Shown here piece after piece: positions 3,735-37,640 of a DNA stretch of 64,000 nt (position 1 is the stretch's first letter; each line of letters starts with the position of its first letter). The position numbers and the translations under genes were made by a program. The stretch lies in assembly GCF_055900595.2 (NCBI RefSeq), contig NZ_CM148325.1; one strand, 5' to 3'. The notes under the pieces are model-generated. The model was given only the letters and a program-made list of their open reading frames with translations. It searched no databases and was not told where the DNA came from.

Positions 3735-4871
3735 ATGGGACAGAGTAAAAAATTGAATAAACAACCGAGTTCGCTTTCACCGCTGGTGCAATTGGCGGGA
3801 ATTCGCAAATGCTTTGATGGTAAAGAGGTCATTCCCCAGCTGGATCTGACTATCAACAATGGCGAGTTCCTCACGCTGCTTGGCCCTTCTGGCTGCGGTA
3901 AAACAACCGTTCTTCGCCTGATTGCAGGTCTGGAAACTGTTGATTCCGGACGCATCATGCTGGATAACGAGGACATCACCCTCGTTCCGGCGGAAAACCG
4001 CTATGTGAACACTGTTTTCCAAAGCTACGCACTTTTCCCCCACATGACCGTGTTCGAAAATGTGGCCTTTGGGTTGCGCATGCAAAAAACCCCCGCTGCT
4101 GAAATTACGCCCCGCGTGATGGAAGCCCTGCGGATGGTGCAGCTGGAAACCTTCGCTCAACGTAAACCGCATCAGCTTTCTGGTGGTCAACAGCAACGCG
4201 TCGCCATTGCTCGCGCGGTGGTTAACAAGCCTCGTCTGTTGTTGCTGGATGAGTCGCTCTCAGCGCTGGATTACAAACTGCGCAAGCAAATGCAGAACGA
4301 GCTGAAAGCGTTACAGCGTAAGCTTGGCATTACATTCGTGTTCGTAACTCACGACCAGGAAGAAGCACTCACCATGTCGGACAGGATTGTGGTGATGCGC
4401 GATGGTCGCATTGAGCAAGACGGCACGCCGCGTGAAATCTACGAAGAGCCGAAAAACCTGTTTGTTGCTGGGTTTATCGGTGAAATCAATATGTTTAATG
4501 CCACGGTCATCGAACGTCTCGACGAGCAGCGCGTACGCGCCAACGTTGAAGGCCGCGAGTGTAATATCTACGTTAACTTCGGCGTTGAACCGGGGCAAAA
4601 ACTGCATGTTCTGCTGCGCCCGGAAGACTTACGTGTTGAAGAGATTAACGACGACAACCACGCCGAAGGGCTGATTGGTTACGTTCGCGAGCGTAATTAC
4701 AAAGGCATGACGCTGGAGTCGGTTGTTGAGCTGGAAAATGGCAAGATGGTGATGGTCAGCGAATTCTTCAATGAAGACGATCCTGACTTTGACCACTCTC
4801 TCGACCAAAAAATGGCCATTAATTGGGTAGAAAGCTGGGAGGTCGTACTGGCTGATGAAGAACACAAGTAA
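3735..4871 (+). CDS. potA: Spermidine/putrescine ABC transporter ATP-binding protein
   Basis: 378 aa; Walker [13 protein letters not shown] signature LSGGQQQRV, Walker B LLLDE. Confidence 0.97.
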
Positions 4872-28765: not shown

Positions 28766-28785
28766 ATAACACCTGTAATAAATAT

Positions 28786-28809
28786 CCTCCGGCATAGCCG
28801 GAGGTTTTT
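28786..28809 (+). terminator. IS200 end hairpin with T-tract (cctccggc-ata-gccggagg-ttttt)
   Basis: Perfect 8-bp stem plus TTTTT inside the IS right end; would terminate fhuE read-through; copy B equivalent at 35617-35640. Confidence 0.5.
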
Positions 28810-28885
28810 CAAATGCGCCTGTAAGGCTCTGTTACCAGCCGCGCCCTAACAGGCGCATACGATCTGACATTTGCATTCAACTTCG

Positions 28886-29344
28886 TTACTTACGGCCCGT
28901 AAACGGGCTGCCCGGATATGGAATCGATAACTGCTCCCCCATTTTATCCTCTTCAAGCTGGTGCTTTATGTAGTCCTGTATCTTCGCCGTGTTCTTACCC
29001 ACCGTATCGACATAGTACCCTCGGCACCAGAACTCCCTGTTTCTGTATTTGAATTTCAAATCCCCAAACTGCTCGTAAAGCATCAGACTGCTTTTCCCTT
29101 TCAGATATCCCATAAAGCCGGATACGCTCATTTTGGGTGGGATTTCCACAAGCATATGGATATGATCTGCGCAGCACTCTGCTTCCAGAATCCGTACGCT
29201 TTTCCACTCACACAGCTTTCTCAAAATACTGCCTATCGCCCTACGCTTCTCTCCGTAAAACGCCAGTCTTCGGTATTTCGGCGCAAAAACTATGTGATAT
29301 TTACAGTTCCAGCGGGTGTGCGCTAAGCTCTTTTCGTCCCCCAT
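28886..29344 (-). CDS. tnpA: IS200 transposase TnpA (Y1 HUH family)
   Basis: ORF 28886..29395; ATG at 29344 gives MGDEKSLAHTRWNCKYHIVFAPKYRR...HIHMLV (HUH)...CRGYYVDTVG (catalytic Tyr), ~152 aa. Confidence 0.92.
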   Translation of the reverse strand: MGDEKSLAHTRWNCKYHIVFAPKYRRLAFYGEKRRAIGSILRKLCEWKSVRILEAECCADHIHMLVEIPPKMSVSGFMGYLKGKSSLMLYEQFGDLKFKYRNREFWCRGYYVDTVGKNTAKIQDYIKHQLEEDKMGEQLSIPYPGSPFTGRK

Positions 29345-29420
29345 TGGGACCCCCTTTTGATTTCTTGTTTGACACTTGCAGTTGCCAGACCGCAAGGTGT
29401 TTTAACAAATCAAAAGGGGT
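29345..29420 (-). promoter_or_regulatory. IS200 tnpA 5' leader stem-loop that occludes the ribosome-binding site
   Basis: In tnpA sense, ccccuuuugauu pairs with aaucaaaagggg, which covers the SD immediately upstream of the ATG; described for Salmonella IS200. Confidence 0.55.
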
Positions 29421-29456
29421 TTTAATAACTGGCTCAAAGCTGAAAGCTTTCCGGAA

Positions 29457-29480
29457 CCCCCAGCCTAGCTGGGGGTTTTC
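29457..29480. terminator. IS200 left-end perfect hairpin (ccccc-agcctagct-ggggg)
   Basis: Perfect palindrome followed by tttt on the plus strand; IS200 ends carry hairpins that block impinging transcription. Confidence 0.5.
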
Positions 29481-29489
29481 TGTGCACAA

Positions 29490-29512
29490 AAAAGGCAGCC
29501 ATCTGGCTGCCT
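29490..29512 (-). terminator. ptsG rho-independent terminator
   Basis: In ptsG sense, ggcagccagatggctgcc followed by a T-run, then the IS200 end. Confidence 0.7.
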
Positions 29513-29535
29513 TAGTCTCCCCAACGTCTTACGGA

Positions 29536-30969
29536 TTAGTGGTTACGGATGTACTCATCCATCTCGGTTTTCAGGTTATCGGATTTAGTACCGAAAATCG
29601 CCTGAACACCAGAACCAGCAACCACTACGCCCGCTGCGCCCAGTTTCTTCAGGCCAGCCTGATCCACTTTAGACACATCAGCAACGCTGACGCGCAGACG
29701 GGTAATACATGCGTCGAGGTTAGTGATGTTTTCTTTACCACCAAACGCAGCAACCAGAGCCGGTGCCATTTCGCTGGTACCTGTCGCTTTTGCATCATCA
29801 GTCGCGTCTTCACGACCCGGCGTTTTCAGATCCAGTGCTTTAATCAGCACGCGGAAGATGGTGTAGTAAACAATTGCATAACCGATACCGACGATCGGGA
29901 ACAGCCACAGTTTGCTGCTGTTACCAGACAGAACGATGAAGTCGATCAGACCGTGCGAGAACGACGTACCGTCACGCATCCCCAGAAGAATACAGATTGG
30001 GAATGCCAGGCCTGCCAGAATCGCGTGGATGATGTACAGGATAGGCGCAACGAACATGAAGGAGAACTCGATCGGCTCGGTGATACCGGTCAGGAACGAG
30101 GTCAGCGCCGCGGAGATCATGATACCGCCCACTTTCGCGCGGTTTTCCGGTTTAGCAGAGTGCCAGATAGCAATTGCGGCAGCTGGCAGACCGTACATTT
30201 TGAACAGGAAGCCGCCAGACAGTTTACCCGCAGTCGGGTCACCCGCCATATAACGCGGAATGTCGCCGTGGAAAACCTGACCTGCAGCGTTGGTGTATTC
30301 ACCAATCTGCATCTGGAAAGGTACGTTCCAGATGTGGTGCAGACCAAACGGTACCAGGCAACGTTCGATGAAACCGTAAATGCCAAACGCAACTACCGGG
30401 TTCTGGTAAGCAGCCCACTGAGAGAAGGTCTGGATTGCAGAACCAATAGGCGGCCAAATGAAGGACAGCACAACGCCAGTAAATATGGCAGCCAGGCCTG
30501 AAATGATCGGCACAAAGCGTTTACCGGCAAAGAAGCCAAGATACTCAGGCAGCTTAATACGGTAGAAACGGTTAAACATGTACGCTGCGATCGCACCGGA
30601 GATGATCCCCCCGAGTACGCCAGTATCCGCCAGGTGTTTAGAGGCGATTTCTTCAGCAGGTAAATGCAGTACCAGTGGCGCAACCACGGCCATGGTTTTA
30701 ACCATGATGCCATAGGCAACAACTGCGGCCAGCGCGGATACGCCATCGTTATTGGTAAAGCCGAGGGCGACACCGATCGCAAAAATCAGTGGCATGTTTG
30801 CAAAGACGGAACCGCCTGCTTCTGCCATAACATGCGATACAACGGCGGGCAGCCAGCTGAAATTCGCGGAACCGACGCCCAGCAGAATACCTGCGATAGG
30901 CAGTACGGATACCGGCAGCATCAGCGATTTACCGACCTTTTGCAGGTTAGCAAATGCATTCTTAAACAT
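29536..30969 (-). CDS. ptsG: Glucose-specific PTS enzyme IICB
   Basis: 477 aa, [33 protein letters not shown]...; EIIB Cys motif in the C-terminal domain. Confidence 0.97.
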
Positions 30970-31263: not shown

Positions 31264-32061
31264 TCAACGGATGGATTGAAGGCGGGAAGCGTCGATGTGA
31301 AACAGACGGGCGAAGTTATCGGTGGTTACCTGCGCCAGTTCTTCAACGGCAACACCTTTCAACACAGCCATGTATTCTGCAACGTCACGAACCATCGCAG
31401 GTTGATTCTCTTTTCCTCGATGCGGAACCGGTGCAAGGTAAGGTGAGTCAGTTTCTACCAGTAACCGATCGAGGGGGACATAACGCGCGGCATCGCGCAG
31501 TTGCTCCGCATTACGGAAAGTCACAATGCCGGAAAAGGAGATGTAAAATCCGAGATCCAGTAATTTACCCGCCGTTTCTCTGTCCTCTGTAAAACAGTGT
31601 AGTACGCCACCGCAATCCGTCACTTTTTCTTCGCGCAGAATTGCCAGCGTATCGGCGCGGGCGTCACGGGTGTGGACGATAACCGGCTTGTTCAGTTCAC
31701 GACCAATCTGGATATGATGGATGAAGGACTCTTGCTGCCGTACTTTAGTTTCCGGCGTGTAATAATAATCCAACCCGGTTTCACCCAGCGCAACAACGCC
31801 CTCTTCTGCCGCCAGACGGCGTAAATCTTCTACATCGTAGGGATCATTCTGGTTGAGTGGATGCACGCCACAAGAAAATACGACGTTGTCACGTTCGCCT
31901 ACCAGATCCCGCATGTGTAAATAACCCGGTAATGTTGTGGCGACTGCCAGACAAAATTTCACATCGCGTGCGGCGGCTTTCGCCAGAACGTCATCCACGT
32001 CCTTATGCAAAGATTCATAATCCAGACCATCGAGATGGCAGTGTGAGTCGACTAAAAACAT
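31264..32061 (-). CDS. ycfH: TatD-family metal-dependent deoxyribonuclease YcfH
   Basis: ORF 31264..32121; ATG at 32061 gives [11 protein letters not shown]... 265 aa. Confidence 0.93.
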
Positions 32062-32071
32062 GATGTCTCTC

Positions 32072-33076
32072 TTAAAGATGAGGAACCGGTAGCACAACGC
32101 CCGGTTGCAGGTAATGCTCAATACGCAGTAAAAGATCGGTGATGAGAAGCTCTCGGTTAATACCTGTGACAGACATTAACTGTTCACGAATGTGGCAAAC
32201 ATCCCCCAGTATAGCCTGCAGACGCGAGGGAGAAAGATGGTTTGCCAGTTCGACGACCAGGCCCGGCACATCAACATTGGTAACCTGCGCAGCGCCATGA
32301 TGGCGTTTTAGCGCATCCATCAGCAACGTTGCCAGCCAGTGTAAACGCGCCGGAGCTTGTTCATGATTAAGGGCCGCTAGCAGCGAATACCAGTCGCCCG
32401 ATTGCACGCTATATGCCAGCGCCTGACACAATGTTTCACGAGCCTGCCAGATATCTCCCTGAAACAACGCCAGTGCCGCACCAGGCGAACCGGCGCTTAA
32501 GCGCAATGCGGCAAGTAATGCATCCTGTGACATTGTCACTTCGCGTGAAAGCCAGGTCACGGCGTACTGTTCCGGCGGCGGCGCAAGGTAATGTAACCGA
32601 CAACGACTACGTAATGTTGCCAGTAAACGTTCAGGCTCGCGGGTAGCAAGGAAAAACCAGGTTTCTGCTGGCGGCTCTTCAAGCGTTTTCAGCAATGCGT
32701 TAGCCGCGGCGTCAGTCAGTAAGGCAGCATCGGTTACCCAGACAACTTTCGCACCACCTAAGCGTGCGTGCTCATTTAACTTTTCGGTGACTTCACGTAC
32801 CGCATCAATGCCCAGCGCATTTTTCCCTTTTTCGGGAGCCAGGGTGTAATAATCGGGATGCGTGCCAGCCTGCATCAACTGACATCCACGACAGTGACCG
32901 CAACTTTTGTGGCCCTGCGGTTGTTGGCAGAGTAAATAACGGCTCAGGGCGTAGATTAAAGCATCCTCGCCCATACCCGGTAACGCCTGAATGAGTAGCG
33001 CATGGTGACCTCTTCCGGCCTGATAGCTGGCTACCAGTTTTTCGAAATCAGGTCGTAACCATGGATACCATCTCAT
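32072..33076 (-). CDS. holB: DNA polymerase III delta-prime subunit
   Basis: ORF to 33097; ATG at 33076 gives [15 protein letters not shown]... 334 aa; Zn-module Cys cluster CGHCRGC. Confidence 0.95.
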
Positions 33077-33714
33077 GCGTCCAACTCCTTCACCCAATTG
33101 GTCACGGTAGTGCGGATTGCATCCATCACGGACTCCAGCGGCTGGGTGGCATCAATGGTATGAATGCTTTTATCTTGTGCTGCCACTTCCAGATAGCGGG
33201 CGCGGGTGCGATTAAAGAAATCGAAAGACTCTTGCTCAATACGATCCAGCTCGCCGCGCGCACGCGCGCGTTTTAAGCCAACTTCCGGGGTAACATCGAG
33301 ATAGAGCGTTAAGTCGGGGCGAAAATCCCCGAGAACAGCATCACGCAATGTTGCCAGCATATGTTGGTCAATACCACGTCCGCCGCCCTGATACGCCTGA
33401 GTGGAGAGATCGTGGCGATCGCCAATCACCCAGGTGCCGTTAGTCAGCGCAGGTTTGATGACCGTTTCTACCAGTTGAACGCGCGCGGCATAAAACATCA
33501 GAACTTCGGCTTTATCGGTAATGACTTCATCGCCTACCGATTTGATATCCAGCACCAGGCTTCTTAACTTTTCGGCAAGTTGCGTACCGCCAGGTTCCCG
33601 AGTGAAAACCATGTCGCGGATACCCAGTTGCTCGAGCGTCTCAACCACCACGTTACGCGCGGTAGTTTTGCCTGCGCCTTCCAGCCCCTCAATGACGATA
33701 TACTTACTGCGCAT
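33073..33714 (-). CDS. tmk: Thymidylate kinase
   Basis: 213 aa, [18 protein letters not shown] (P-loop); stop overlaps holB start by 4 nt. Confidence 0.96.
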
Positions 33715-34726
33715 TTTTTTCCTTAAGCACTTTCAGATAATCCTGCACAGACTTGTTATGACTGGCAAGATTGGTATTAAACGTGTGACCACCTTTACCA
33801 TCGGCCACAAAATAGAGATACGGCGTTTTTGCCGGATGCGCAGCAGCCTTCAGCGAATCCGCCCCCGGCGTCGCTATCGCACCTGGCGGCAAACCGGTAA
33901 TGGTATAGGTGTTATACGCTGTCGGCGTTTCCAGGTCTGCACGAGAAAGTTTGCCATTATAACGCTCTCCCATCCCGTAAATCACGGTCGGGTCGGTCTG
34001 CAGGCGCATACCAATGCGTAAACGGTTGATAAATACCGAGGCAACCTGATCGCGTTCGCTGGAAACGGCGGTTTCTTTTTCGATAATTGATGCCATCGTC
34101 ACCAACTGGTTTTTATCTTTATAAGGCAGACCGTCAGCACGCCCTTCCCAGGCGCTATCGACCGCTTTCACCATTTTCTTGTGTGCACGCTTGAGTAACG
34201 CGACATCTGTGGTATTAGCGGTATACATCCAGGTGTCTGGCCAGAACCAACCTTCAATCCACTCCGGGTTTTCCAGTTCAAGTGCCTGCGCTACGGTGGC
34301 GTACTTATCGTCGCTCAGCGTGTGCTTGATATACGGGGCCTCACGCAATTGCTTGAGGTAATCGCTCAAACGCATCCCTTCTACCAGTCGCAGAGGGAAC
34401 TGTGCTTCTTTACCGCTTTCCAGCAATTTCAGCATCTCACGTACGGTCATCTGCGGTGTAAAGCGGTAAGTCCCGGCTTTAAAGTGAGAAAGATCCGGTT
34501 CGATACGCAGCAGCCATTGAAAAACCCGTGGGCGATTGATGATCTTATCGGCGTAAAGCTGTTCACCGAGCGCCAGACGTCCGGTCCCTGGCTTCAGGGT
34601 AAATATCGTCTCTTCTTTGATAAGCAATTTGCTGTCGGCAAGATGGCGAACCTTCCAGACGCCCACACCAGCGGCGATACCCAGTACCACCAGCAATAAC
34701 AAGATAATCAATAACACTTTTTTCAT
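33704..34726 (-). CDS. mltG: Endolytic murein transglycosylase MltG (YceG)
   Basis: 340 aa with N-terminal TM helix ([24 protein letters not shown]). Confidence 0.94.
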
Positions 34727-34728
34727 GA

Positions 34729-35538
34729 CTAATTCGGGCGCTCACAAAGTGGGGCTAAATATTCATATAACGTTGCTGACGAAAAGGAGACATCGCCACA
34801 GGCACGTACGGGCATCACTGGCATTAACGCATTACAAATAACCATCTCATCTGCCTGCAACGCCTCTTCCAGAGTGGCTTGCACTTCGACAAGCTGATAA
34901 GAGGATTGTGCCAGTAAACGGATACAGAATTGTCGCATAATGCCGTTAACACCTGCCTGCTCTAGTCGCGGCGTATAAACTACATTGCCCTTCCGCCAGA
35001 ACAAATTAGCCGCACAGCATTCCGTAACCCACCCTTCGCTGTCAAGGACCAGCGCCTCATCAGCGTTTGTCTGCTCAAGATGAGAGCGGATCAATACTTG
35101 TTCAAGCCGATTAAGATGTTTAATACCTGCAAGATGAGGATTGCGCCCCAGCCGCACCGGGCTTAGCGCCAACATCATCCCCTCGTTACGCAAACGATCG
35201 TAATGTGCAGGATAAGCCGTAACGGAGAGAATCCGCGTTGCCGGTCCGCTGTTCAATGTGCTGTACCCTCGCCCGCCACTACCGCGACTGATCACGACCT
35301 TCAGCACACCATTCTGCTGTTCTGCTGCCAGCGTTTTCATCTCTTGTTCAAGCTGAGGCCAGAAGTCACAGGAAATCATCAACCGCTGACAAGCATCCTG
35401 TAGTCGCTGGATATGTGCCGATAACAAACTGACTTTACCGTCGATAACTCTGGCGGTGGTAAAACAACCATCACCAAACTGCGTTGCTCGATCGCTTACT
35501 GCCAGCGATTCCTGCTTATGACCGTTAATTAAGAACAT
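34729..35538 (-). CDS. pabC: Aminodeoxychorismate lyase
   Basis: 269 aa, [31 protein letters not shown]...; PLP fold-type IV. Confidence 0.95.
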
Positions 35539-35606
35539 ACCGGCTCCTTATCAGAGAATTGTTAGTGTGGCAGCATGTTCACTACAGAACAAGTCGGAAT
35601 AAAAGC

Positions 35607-36320
35607 TAATAAATATCCTCCGGCATAGCCGGAGGTTTTTCAAATGCGCCTGTAAGGCTCTGTTACCAGCCGCGCCCTAACAGGCGCATACGATCTGACA
35701 TTTGCATTCAACTTCGTTACTTACGGCCCGTAAACGGGCTGCCCGGATATGGAATCGATAACTGCTCCCCCATTTTATCCTCTTCAAGCTGGTGCTTTAT
35801 GTAGTCCTGTATCTTCGCCGTGTTCTTACCCACCGTATCGACATAGTACCCTCGGCACCAGAACTCCCTGTTTCTGTATTTGAATTTCAAATCCCCAAAC
35901 TGCTCGTAAAGCATCAGACTGCTTTTCCCTTTCAGATATCCCATAAAGCCGGATACGCTCATTTTGGGTGGGATTTCCACAAGCATATGGATATGATCTG
36001 CGCAGCACTCTGCTTCCAGAATCCGTACGCTTTTCCACTCACACAGCTTTCTCAAAATACTGCCTATCGCCCTACGCTTCTCTCCGTAAAACGCCAGTCT
36101 TCGGTATTTCGGCGCAAAAACTATGTGATATTTACAGTTCCAGCGGGTGTGCGCTAAGCTCTTTTCGTCCCCCATTGGGACCCCCTTTTGATTTCTTGTT
36201 TGACACTTGCAGTTGCCAGACCGCAAGGTGTTTTAACAAATCAAAAGGGGTTTTAATAACTGGCTCAAAGCTGAAAGCTTTCCGGAACCCCCAGCCTAGC
36301 TGGGGGTTTTCTGTGCACAA
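35607..36320 (-). mobile_element. IS200-family insertion sequence, copy B (714 bp), same orientation as copy A
   Basis: Matches 28776-29489; flanks diverge at 35606/28775 and 36321/29490. Confidence 0.9.
35717..36175 (-). CDS. tnpA: IS200 transposase TnpA (Y1 HUH family), copy B
   Basis: Protein identical to copy A; same RBS-occluding stem-loop at 36176-36251. Confidence 0.92.
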   Translation of the reverse strand: MGDEKSLAHTRWNCKYHIVFAPKYRRLAFYGEKRRAIGSILRKLCEWKSVRILEAECCADHIHMLVEIPPKMSVSGFMGYLKGKSSLMLYEQFGDLKFKYRNREFWCRGYYVDTVGKNTAKIQDYIKHQLEEDKMGEQLSIPYPGSPFTGRK

Positions 36321-36347
36321 GAAAAAAGGCCCGCAAGCGGACCTTTT
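36321..36347 (-). terminator. fabF rho-independent terminator
   Basis: In fabF sense, ggtccgc-ttgc-gggcc followed by ttttttc, then IS200 copy B. Confidence 0.65.
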
Positions 36348-36368
36348 ATAAGGGTGGGAAATGACAAC

Positions 36369-37640
<1,272 letters not shown>

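Follow-up and report, generated by a model that had tools for sequence, protein, structure and literature searches.

Background

In the peel-and-paste mechanism of IS608 and ISDra2, the element is excised and inserted as single-stranded DNA, no target duplication is formed, and the top strand is the lagging-strand template. IS608 inserts 3' of the tetranucleotide TTAC, and ISDra2 inserts 3' of TTGAT. For IS200 the published architecture comprises a bidirectional terminator at nt 12-34, a tnpA start at about nt 40, a weak promoter and a stem-loop in which the Shine-Dalgarno sequence is hidden (PMC4513863). The left-end hairpin is the bidirectional terminator, and it stops about 85% of impinging transcripts (PMC5435999, PMC4513863); the tnpA promoter is intrinsically weak, and tnpA is heavily repressed (PMC4513863).

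Terminator-like sequences were found to be statistically over-represented just upstream of IS200/IS605 elements in a preprint of 2025-26, where they were read as limiting transposase expression (10.1101/2025.07.22.666184). This statistical preprint was the only relevant hit of our literature search, which did not cover the older IS200/IS1541 papers and returned no explicit target-recognition model for IS200 at terminators. The closest analogue for terminator-directed insertion is the group IIC introns, which insert at gene 3' ends, after intrinsic terminators or attC stem-loops (PMC7923331); in contrast to an HUH DNA transposon, they are retroelements, and the target is read by a ribonucleoprotein through IBS/EBS pairing.

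The element described here, IS200 copy B, lies between fabF and pabC. In our reading, to which we assign a probability of about 0.75, it is an intact and recent copy that inserted at the end of the fabF terminator, left the pabC promoter in place, is close to neutral for the neighboring genes, and reflects a targeting of terminators. Otherwise copy B is an ordinary IS200; the interesting part is the targeting rule, together with a recurrent hot spot of a single nucleotide.

Layout of the locus

The window, i.e. the whole stretch of DNA that was analysed, comprises 64,000 nucleotides of contig NZ_CM148325.1 (assembly GCF_055900595.2). It is E. coli of an uncommon lineage: identity over pabC-ycfH was at least 99% in only 17 of 5,426 complete genomes, and among the matches listed eight E. 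coli genomes were 100.0% identical over this region. Gene names were taken from RefSeq-annotated E. coli genomes that are sequence-identical at the locus, and from Pfam. All features of the fabF-IS200-pabC locus are on the - strand, in the order fabF, fabF terminator, IS200 copy B, pabC, mltG, tmk, holB, ycfH, ptsG and IS200 copy A. The gene upstream of the insertion is fabF (36369-37610), an open reading frame annotated as beta-ketoacyl-ACP synthase II in the sequence-identical genomes. Downstream follow pabC (aminodeoxychorismate lyase, 34729-35538; PF01063, 177 bits), with the Shine-Dalgarno sequence AAGGAG at 35549-35544, and the block mltG-tmk-holB-ycfH (31264-34726), whose reading frames were named from the E. 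coli annotation: mltG (33704-34726), tmk (33073-33714), holB (32072-33076) and ycfH (31264-32061). The ptsG gene is located at 29536-30969.

The intrinsic terminator of fabF (36319-36347), detected by terminator scan and hairpin folding, consists of the GC-rich hairpin AAAAGGTCCG-CTTG-CGGGCCTTTT (stem at 36347-36324) and the T-tract TTCTT; RNA 3' ends have been mapped at the equivalent position in K-12. The consensus terminator scan called this terminator in the window and missed it in K-12 (L002 5200-5232). In the window the tail that the scan evaluates gains T's from the IS tip TTGTG, thus the different outcome is an artefact of the scanner's tail criterion and does not indicate a biological difference.

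Structure of IS200 copy B

Comparison of the filled and the empty site defined copy B as a 711-bp insert (GTGCACAG...ATATTTATT) at 35608-36318 or, equivalently, at 35610-36320, on the - strand. The 714-bp stretch 35607-36320 is 100% identical to the stretch 28776-29489 containing copy A, and copy B is 100% identical to annotated IS200 copies of other E. coli genomes. The tnpA gene (35717-36175, co-oriented with pabC) is intact and encodes a 152-aa Y1 (HUH) transposase. Its product matched Pfam PF01797 (Y1_Tnp) with 126.5 bits (cut-off 23) over profile positions 2-121 of 121. It retains the HIH motif as well as the tyrosine of RGYYVD, and the frame has zero stops.

In the left part of the element, the hairpin AACCCCCAGC-TAG-GCTGGGGGTT at 36286-36308 corresponds to IS nt 12-34, that is to the published bidirectional rho-independent terminator. 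It is followed by a long 5'UTR stem-loop (36182-36250, fold z = -4.28), which buries the Shine-Dalgarno sequence and lies in the art200/STnc490 region; the Rfam model STnc490/art200 (RF01405) matched 36185-36308 with 146.4 bits (gathering score 56) over model positions 1-124 of 124. The right-end structures (35617-35689, fold z = -4.65) are terminator-like on both strands and comprise an imperfect palindrome at about 35644-35689 and the terminal hairpin CCTCCGGC-TAT-GCCGGAGG at 35617-35635, after which comes ATATTTATT. The left-end (36286-36308) and the right-end (35617-35635) hairpins are unrelated in sequence. Copy B has different subterminal hairpins at its two ends and no terminal inverted repeats, and no inverted repeat of at least 100 nt was reported within the window.

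Copy B is an intact IS200, a member of the IS200 group of the IS200/IS605 family with a Y1/HUH transposase. It shares with the IS200 of Salmonella and E. coli the single 152-aa Y1 transposase, the left-end terminator hairpin, the 5'UTR stem-loop sequestering the Shine-Dalgarno sequence, the art200/STnc490 region, the right-end hairpins and the lack of inverted repeats; a length of 707 bp is quoted for the Salmonella element, in contrast to the 711-bp insert found here. A chance match was ruled out by the Y1_Tnp score of 126.5 bits, the STnc490 score of 146 bits and the 100% identity to annotated copies.

Insertion point at the end of the fabF terminator

The insertion point was set by aligning the filled site with the empty sites of K-12 and of the nearest relatives. 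In K-12 the empty site reads ...GGGCCTTTTTTCTT up to the insertion point and AGC... after it (in longer view, ...GGTCCGCTTGCGGGCCTTTTTTCTTAGCTTTTATTCCG...), and in the window copy B begins immediately after the TTCTT of the fabF terminator. The original prediction was right in placing an IS200 co-oriented with pabC between the fabF terminator and pabC, but the 68 bp that it gave for the remaining native spacer had to be corrected to 69-71 bp (35539-35609, zero differences from the empty-site relatives). Likewise, upstream sequences were displaced by 711 bp and not, as it had stated, by 714 bp: the three shared bases are flank that matches by chance at both copies. The placement of the insert is ambiguous by one TT dinucleotide. 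There is no repeated flank, i.e. no target-site duplication, as in the peel-and-paste mechanism of IS608 and ISDra2. In contrast to the TTAC of IS608 and the TTGAT of ISDra2, the target was a GC hairpin with a T-tract ending in TT, and no fixed tetranucleotide was seen.

In K-12 the acpP-fabF transcripts end at 1153228/1153229 (PMC6131387 supplement), which leaves 0-3 nt between copy B and the 3' end mapped at the fabF terminator. It appears that copy B entered the T-tract of this intrinsic terminator at its very last bases, and the insertion point would coincide with the 3' end of the transcription unit upstream. Because of this coincidence neither a gene nor the core promoter of pabC would be split.

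Association of IS200-type left ends with terminators

Copy A (28777-29487, - strand), recognized by its identity to copy B, lies 6.8 kb from it, between ptsG and fhuE, directly after the ptsG terminator (GGCAGCCAGATGGCTGCC + T6, 29488-29513) and co-oriented with ptsG. It is common to both nearest relatives, is absent from K-12 and SCU-313, and is a possible donor of copy B. In E. coli CFSAN061763 (L127 1460-1510) a 100%-identical IS200 was found directly after the fdnI terminator, ATGGCGCTT-TAAG-AAGCGCCAT and a T-run; this copy is co-oriented with fdnGHI and adjoins yddM. Thus, at each of the three E. coli sites examined for this IS variant (fabF, ptsG and fdnI), the element directly follows the hairpin and T-run of the terminator of a co-oriented gene.

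The association was studied more widely with a scan in which each species was represented by one genome and the 26-nt left-end motif GAAAACCCCCAGCTAGGCTGGGGGTT was sought; it yielded at least 120 stretches. Among the matches listed, the motif occurred in exact form in very distant taxa (Yersinia pestis, Vibrio, Mailhella/Desulfovibrio, Oxalobacter, and Bacillota, Peptococcaceae and Elusimicrobia MAGs), and stretches from Brenneria and Edwardsiella were also among them. Many of the matches were about 90-130 nt from contig ends, where assemblies break inside the IS.

We compared 119 distinct left flanks, 60 of them from a single Y. pestis genome, with about 1.6 million control positions. A strict terminator criterion was satisfied by 92 of the 119 flanks (77%) and by 1.6% of the controls. 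A hairpin with its end 0-12 nt in front of the 9-nt IS tip was present in 91 flanks (76%; control 3.7%), and a hairpin combined with a T-run in 49 (41%; control 0.13%). Flank positions -1 to -6 were overwhelmingly T, and the distance between the outermost G:C pair and the cleavage point peaked at 6-9 nt, the value for the fabF site being 9 nt. As read from the sequence, the right-end hairpin of IS200 is likewise separated from the IS end by 9 nt (ATATTTATT). A minority of the left flanks had no clear hairpin or T-run (for example ...GCCGCCTGCTTGTATGAA); such flanks could define the minimal target requirement.

IS1541 of Yersinia pestis has the identical 26-nt left-end hairpin motif, and most of its approximately 60 sites have a hairpin and a T-run. 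It differs in the tip (GTGCCCA vs GTGCACA), in its high copy number and in the occurrence of tandem dimers. Head-to-tail tandem IS1541 copies with a spacing of 710 nt were seen in Y. pestis NCTC5923 (L066 2661-3396 and L068 12605-13340, with two further flanks). In two Y. pestis copies the left tip directly follows the right-end hairpin and ATATTTATT of another copy, an arrangement consistent with the right end being a look-alike of the target.

The GC skew of the + strand was negative in seven of eight bins, giving the - strand a leading-strand composition, which argues that the top strand of the IS is the lagging-strand template. This agrees with the rule of the family, in which the active top strand is on the lagging-strand template (PMC5371812). 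Copy B would have been inserted into this template as single-stranded DNA. There the right end of the element, a hairpin followed by ATATTTATT, would be mimicked by a GC hairpin with a T-rich tract of 6-9 nt behind it that ends in TT. We tentatively suggest, with a confidence somewhat short of even, that IS200-group transposases may select intrinsic terminators as integration sites by such mimicry of the right end. If true, this would explain the independent hits at the same fabF nucleotide in different E. coli lineages, the tandem IS1541 dimers, the rarity of mutations caused by IS200, and the terminator signal near IS200/IS605 elements in the preprint of 2025-26.

The association with terminators might also come from purifying selection or from a simple preference for T-runs, with the hairpin not being recognized at all, and the enrichment could partly reflect the survival of harmless insertions rather than the choice of target. 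A preference for T-runs would fit the overwhelmingly T-rich positions -1 to -6, but where a T-run was present, an adjacent hairpin was found at 80% of the IS sites as compared to 3% of the control T-runs, and the distance from hairpin to cleavage point was sharply peaked at 6-9 nt. Selection would favor intergenic 3' ends as safe places, and in the preprint the pattern is interpreted in terms of niche or regulation (10.1101/2025.07.22.666184), whereas the same nucleotide was hit twice independently and some insertions are located after the right-end hairpin of another copy. Taking these observations together, we consider it unlikely that selection or T-runs account for the association.

At a hairpin plus T-tract, IS200-type elements seem to find the precise 3' ends of transcription units and would therefore be intrinsically low in damage, which could explain the notorious "silence" of IS200. 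The homing rule predicts the sites and the strand of new IS200 copies.

Transcription of the genes downstream of copy B

In strict sigma-70 scans of the junction in the window and of the K-12 intergenic region no promoter-like site was detected, therefore the position of the promoter was taken from published start maps. All transcript starts and ends in the window were transferred from K-12, and from these we infer the effect on transcription in this strain. Full-length transcripts of K-12, mapped by SMRT-Cappable-seq, place the start of pabC-mltG-tmk at 1153280, 20 nt before the pabC ATG (PMC6131387 supplement). Mapped onto the window this start is at about 35558, and it points to a sigma-70 promoter at 35557-35592 (- strand), with putative hexamers TTGTTC (-35, 35592-35587) and CACACT (-10, 35569-35564) and a 17-nt spacer that ends in TGC, as in an extended -10 element. 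The promoter region is identical to K-12 at 55 of 56 positions and lies wholly within the retained spacer. It is weak by sequence (6 of 12 hexamer matches plus TGn) and escaped the strict scanner. Two further K-12 starts, 1153829 in pabC and 1154889 in mltG, serve mltG-tmk and tmk-holB-ycfH (PMC6131387 supplement). The corresponding positions on the - strand of the window are 35009, with the elements TTGACA-18-AATGCT, and 33949, with the perfect -10 hexamer TATAAT; both promoters are near consensus and 100% conserved relative to K-12 (56 of 56 positions each).

The original prediction had raised the concern that native promoter elements of pabC were displaced by the IS. This is largely unsupported, as the K-12 start and the -35 and -10 elements assigned to it are all inside the retained 69-71 bp. 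Its suggestion that tmk and holB could be expressed from internal promoters agrees well with the two conserved starts, and its view of the IS end hairpins as terminators with the published termination of about 85% at the left end (PMC5435999, PMC4513863). By its own account it would give way to transcript maps placing all pabC-holB promoters within the retained segment or inside downstream genes; the maps do place the pabC start in the spacer and the other starts inside genes, but they are data on K-12 and not on this strain.

Copy B is predicted to leave intact the fabF terminator as well as the pabC promoter (-35 to +1), which would be 17-19 bp downstream of the right end of the IS, and not to touch the internal promoters of mltG-tmk and tmk-holB-ycfH. 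In the UP-element region of the pabC promoter one A/T-rich sequence would be swapped for another. The only expected effect on transcription is an additional insulation of pabC-mltG from transcription of the fab cluster, because any residual read-through from acpP/fabF would also have to get through the terminator at the left end, the 711-bp IS and the hairpins at the right end. As the left end of IS200 is a published terminator, it is the minor acpP/fabF read-through into pabC-mltG seen in K-12 that would most plausibly be removed, or at least curtailed. Copy B is thus probably nearly neutral, and not a rewiring of essential-gene expression. The locus itself is of little consequence, as tmk and holB (both essential), pabC and mltG should keep promoters of their own, and entire lineages of E. 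coli have an IS at this very position.

The promoter of acpP is very strong, and a few percent of read-through from it could be a sizeable share of the pabC-mltG mRNA, the loss of which might matter. The IS could then be a significant insulator: were acpP/fabF read-through a major source of pabC-mltG transcripts, blocking it would measurably lower PabC and MltG and could have a mild fitness cost or be a selected change. Read-through variants of the operon containing b1094, b1095 and b1096, with or without b1097, i.e. acpP-fabF-pabC(-mltG), do occur in K-12 (PMC6131387 supplement), but the fabF terminator already stops most acpP/fabF transcripts. The termination of about 85% of impinging transcription at the left end and the weak sequence of the pabC promoter would add to the effect, whereas tmk and holB have near-consensus promoters of their own, and the retention of an IS at this point in about 220 genomes with at least two divergent haplotypes indicates tolerance. 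A substantial role as insulator therefore seems improbable. For measuring terminator read-through into pabC-mltG, this strain and either Z0117EC0005 or E200086, with 4,079 bp of identical flanks, form a natural pair with and without the IS.

It is very improbable that the IS cut pabC-holB off from the native promoter and that these genes are now expressed by read-through of tnpA or from an outward promoter, both of which the original prediction had named as possible contributors. The IS is co-oriented with pabC at a distance of only 69-71 bp, but no promoter-like site was found by the strict scan in its right end, in the junction or in the retained segment, tnpA has a weak promoter under heavy repression, and on the - strand the terminal hairpin of the right end, with AUAUUUAUUA after it, resembles a terminator; expression driven by the IS is unlikely on these grounds. 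One K-12 data set (Kim 2012) puts a pabC start at 1152219 (.2 coordinates) within fabF, which is upstream of the IS and qualifies our preferred reading of a retained pabC promoter; the SMRT-Cappable-seq start, in contrast, is 20 nt before the ATG in the retained segment, and no compensatory change has arisen in this segment, which equals that of the empty-site relatives (zero differences). In the region of the fabF-internal start (about 36553-36565, - strand), the -10 hexamer is TAGAAT in K-12 and TAGAGT in the lineage of the window. A transcript begun there would likewise meet the left-end terminator, the body of the IS and the right-end hairpins before reaching pabC. A literature search on the promoters of pabC, fabF and holB, on IS200 with pabC and on pabC/yceG/tmk starts returned nothing useful, and the Cappable-seq supplement had no matching coordinates for the locus.

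Age of the insertion and recurrence at the site

In Z0117EC0005 and E200086, the two nearest relatives examined, the flanks were identical to those of the window (0 mismatches in 4,079 positions) and copy A was present, whereas the fabF-pabC site was empty. None of the 5,426 E. coli genomes had a full-length match to the filled site above 96.9%, which shows that the copy B allele is specific to this strain. Copy B is recent and specific to this strain, and comes from transposition of its own IS200 variant. A new copy that is identical to copy A and that the nearest relatives lack bears indirectly on transposition through a single-stranded circular intermediate, as in the IS200/IS605 family.

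An IS200C element, IS200C being the annotation of E. coli variants of IS200, was found at the identical nucleotide and in identical orientation in 220-221 of the 5,426 genomes. These elements differ from the IS of the window at 26-29 of 711 bases (3.7-4.1%), and their flanks are about 1.8% different. Taking into account the roughly 4% divergence of the elements, the 1.8% divergence of the flanks and the relatives that have empty sites with identical flanks, the fabF-pabC site has been hit at least two times independently. That copy B shares the site with the approximately 220 genomes through common ancestry or horizontal transfer of an IS-bearing segment, as the identical junctions and orientation and the similar divergence of IS and flanks within the IS200C group might suggest, is hardly credible and was rejected, because the flanks in the window equal those of the empty-site relatives at 4,079 of 4,079 positions and are about 1.8% from those of IS200C-bearing genomes, and the IS is 100% identical to the strain's own copy A.

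The IS200C group itself contains two flank haplotypes, the SCU-313 type and the WCHEC96200 type. Over about 711 bases the IS of the two types differs by 5 mismatches and a single 1-base gap, and their flanks are about 1.1% different. This similar divergence of IS and flanks suggests that the two haplotypes may descend from one old insertion, which, if so, would argue for long-term tolerance of an IS at this site.
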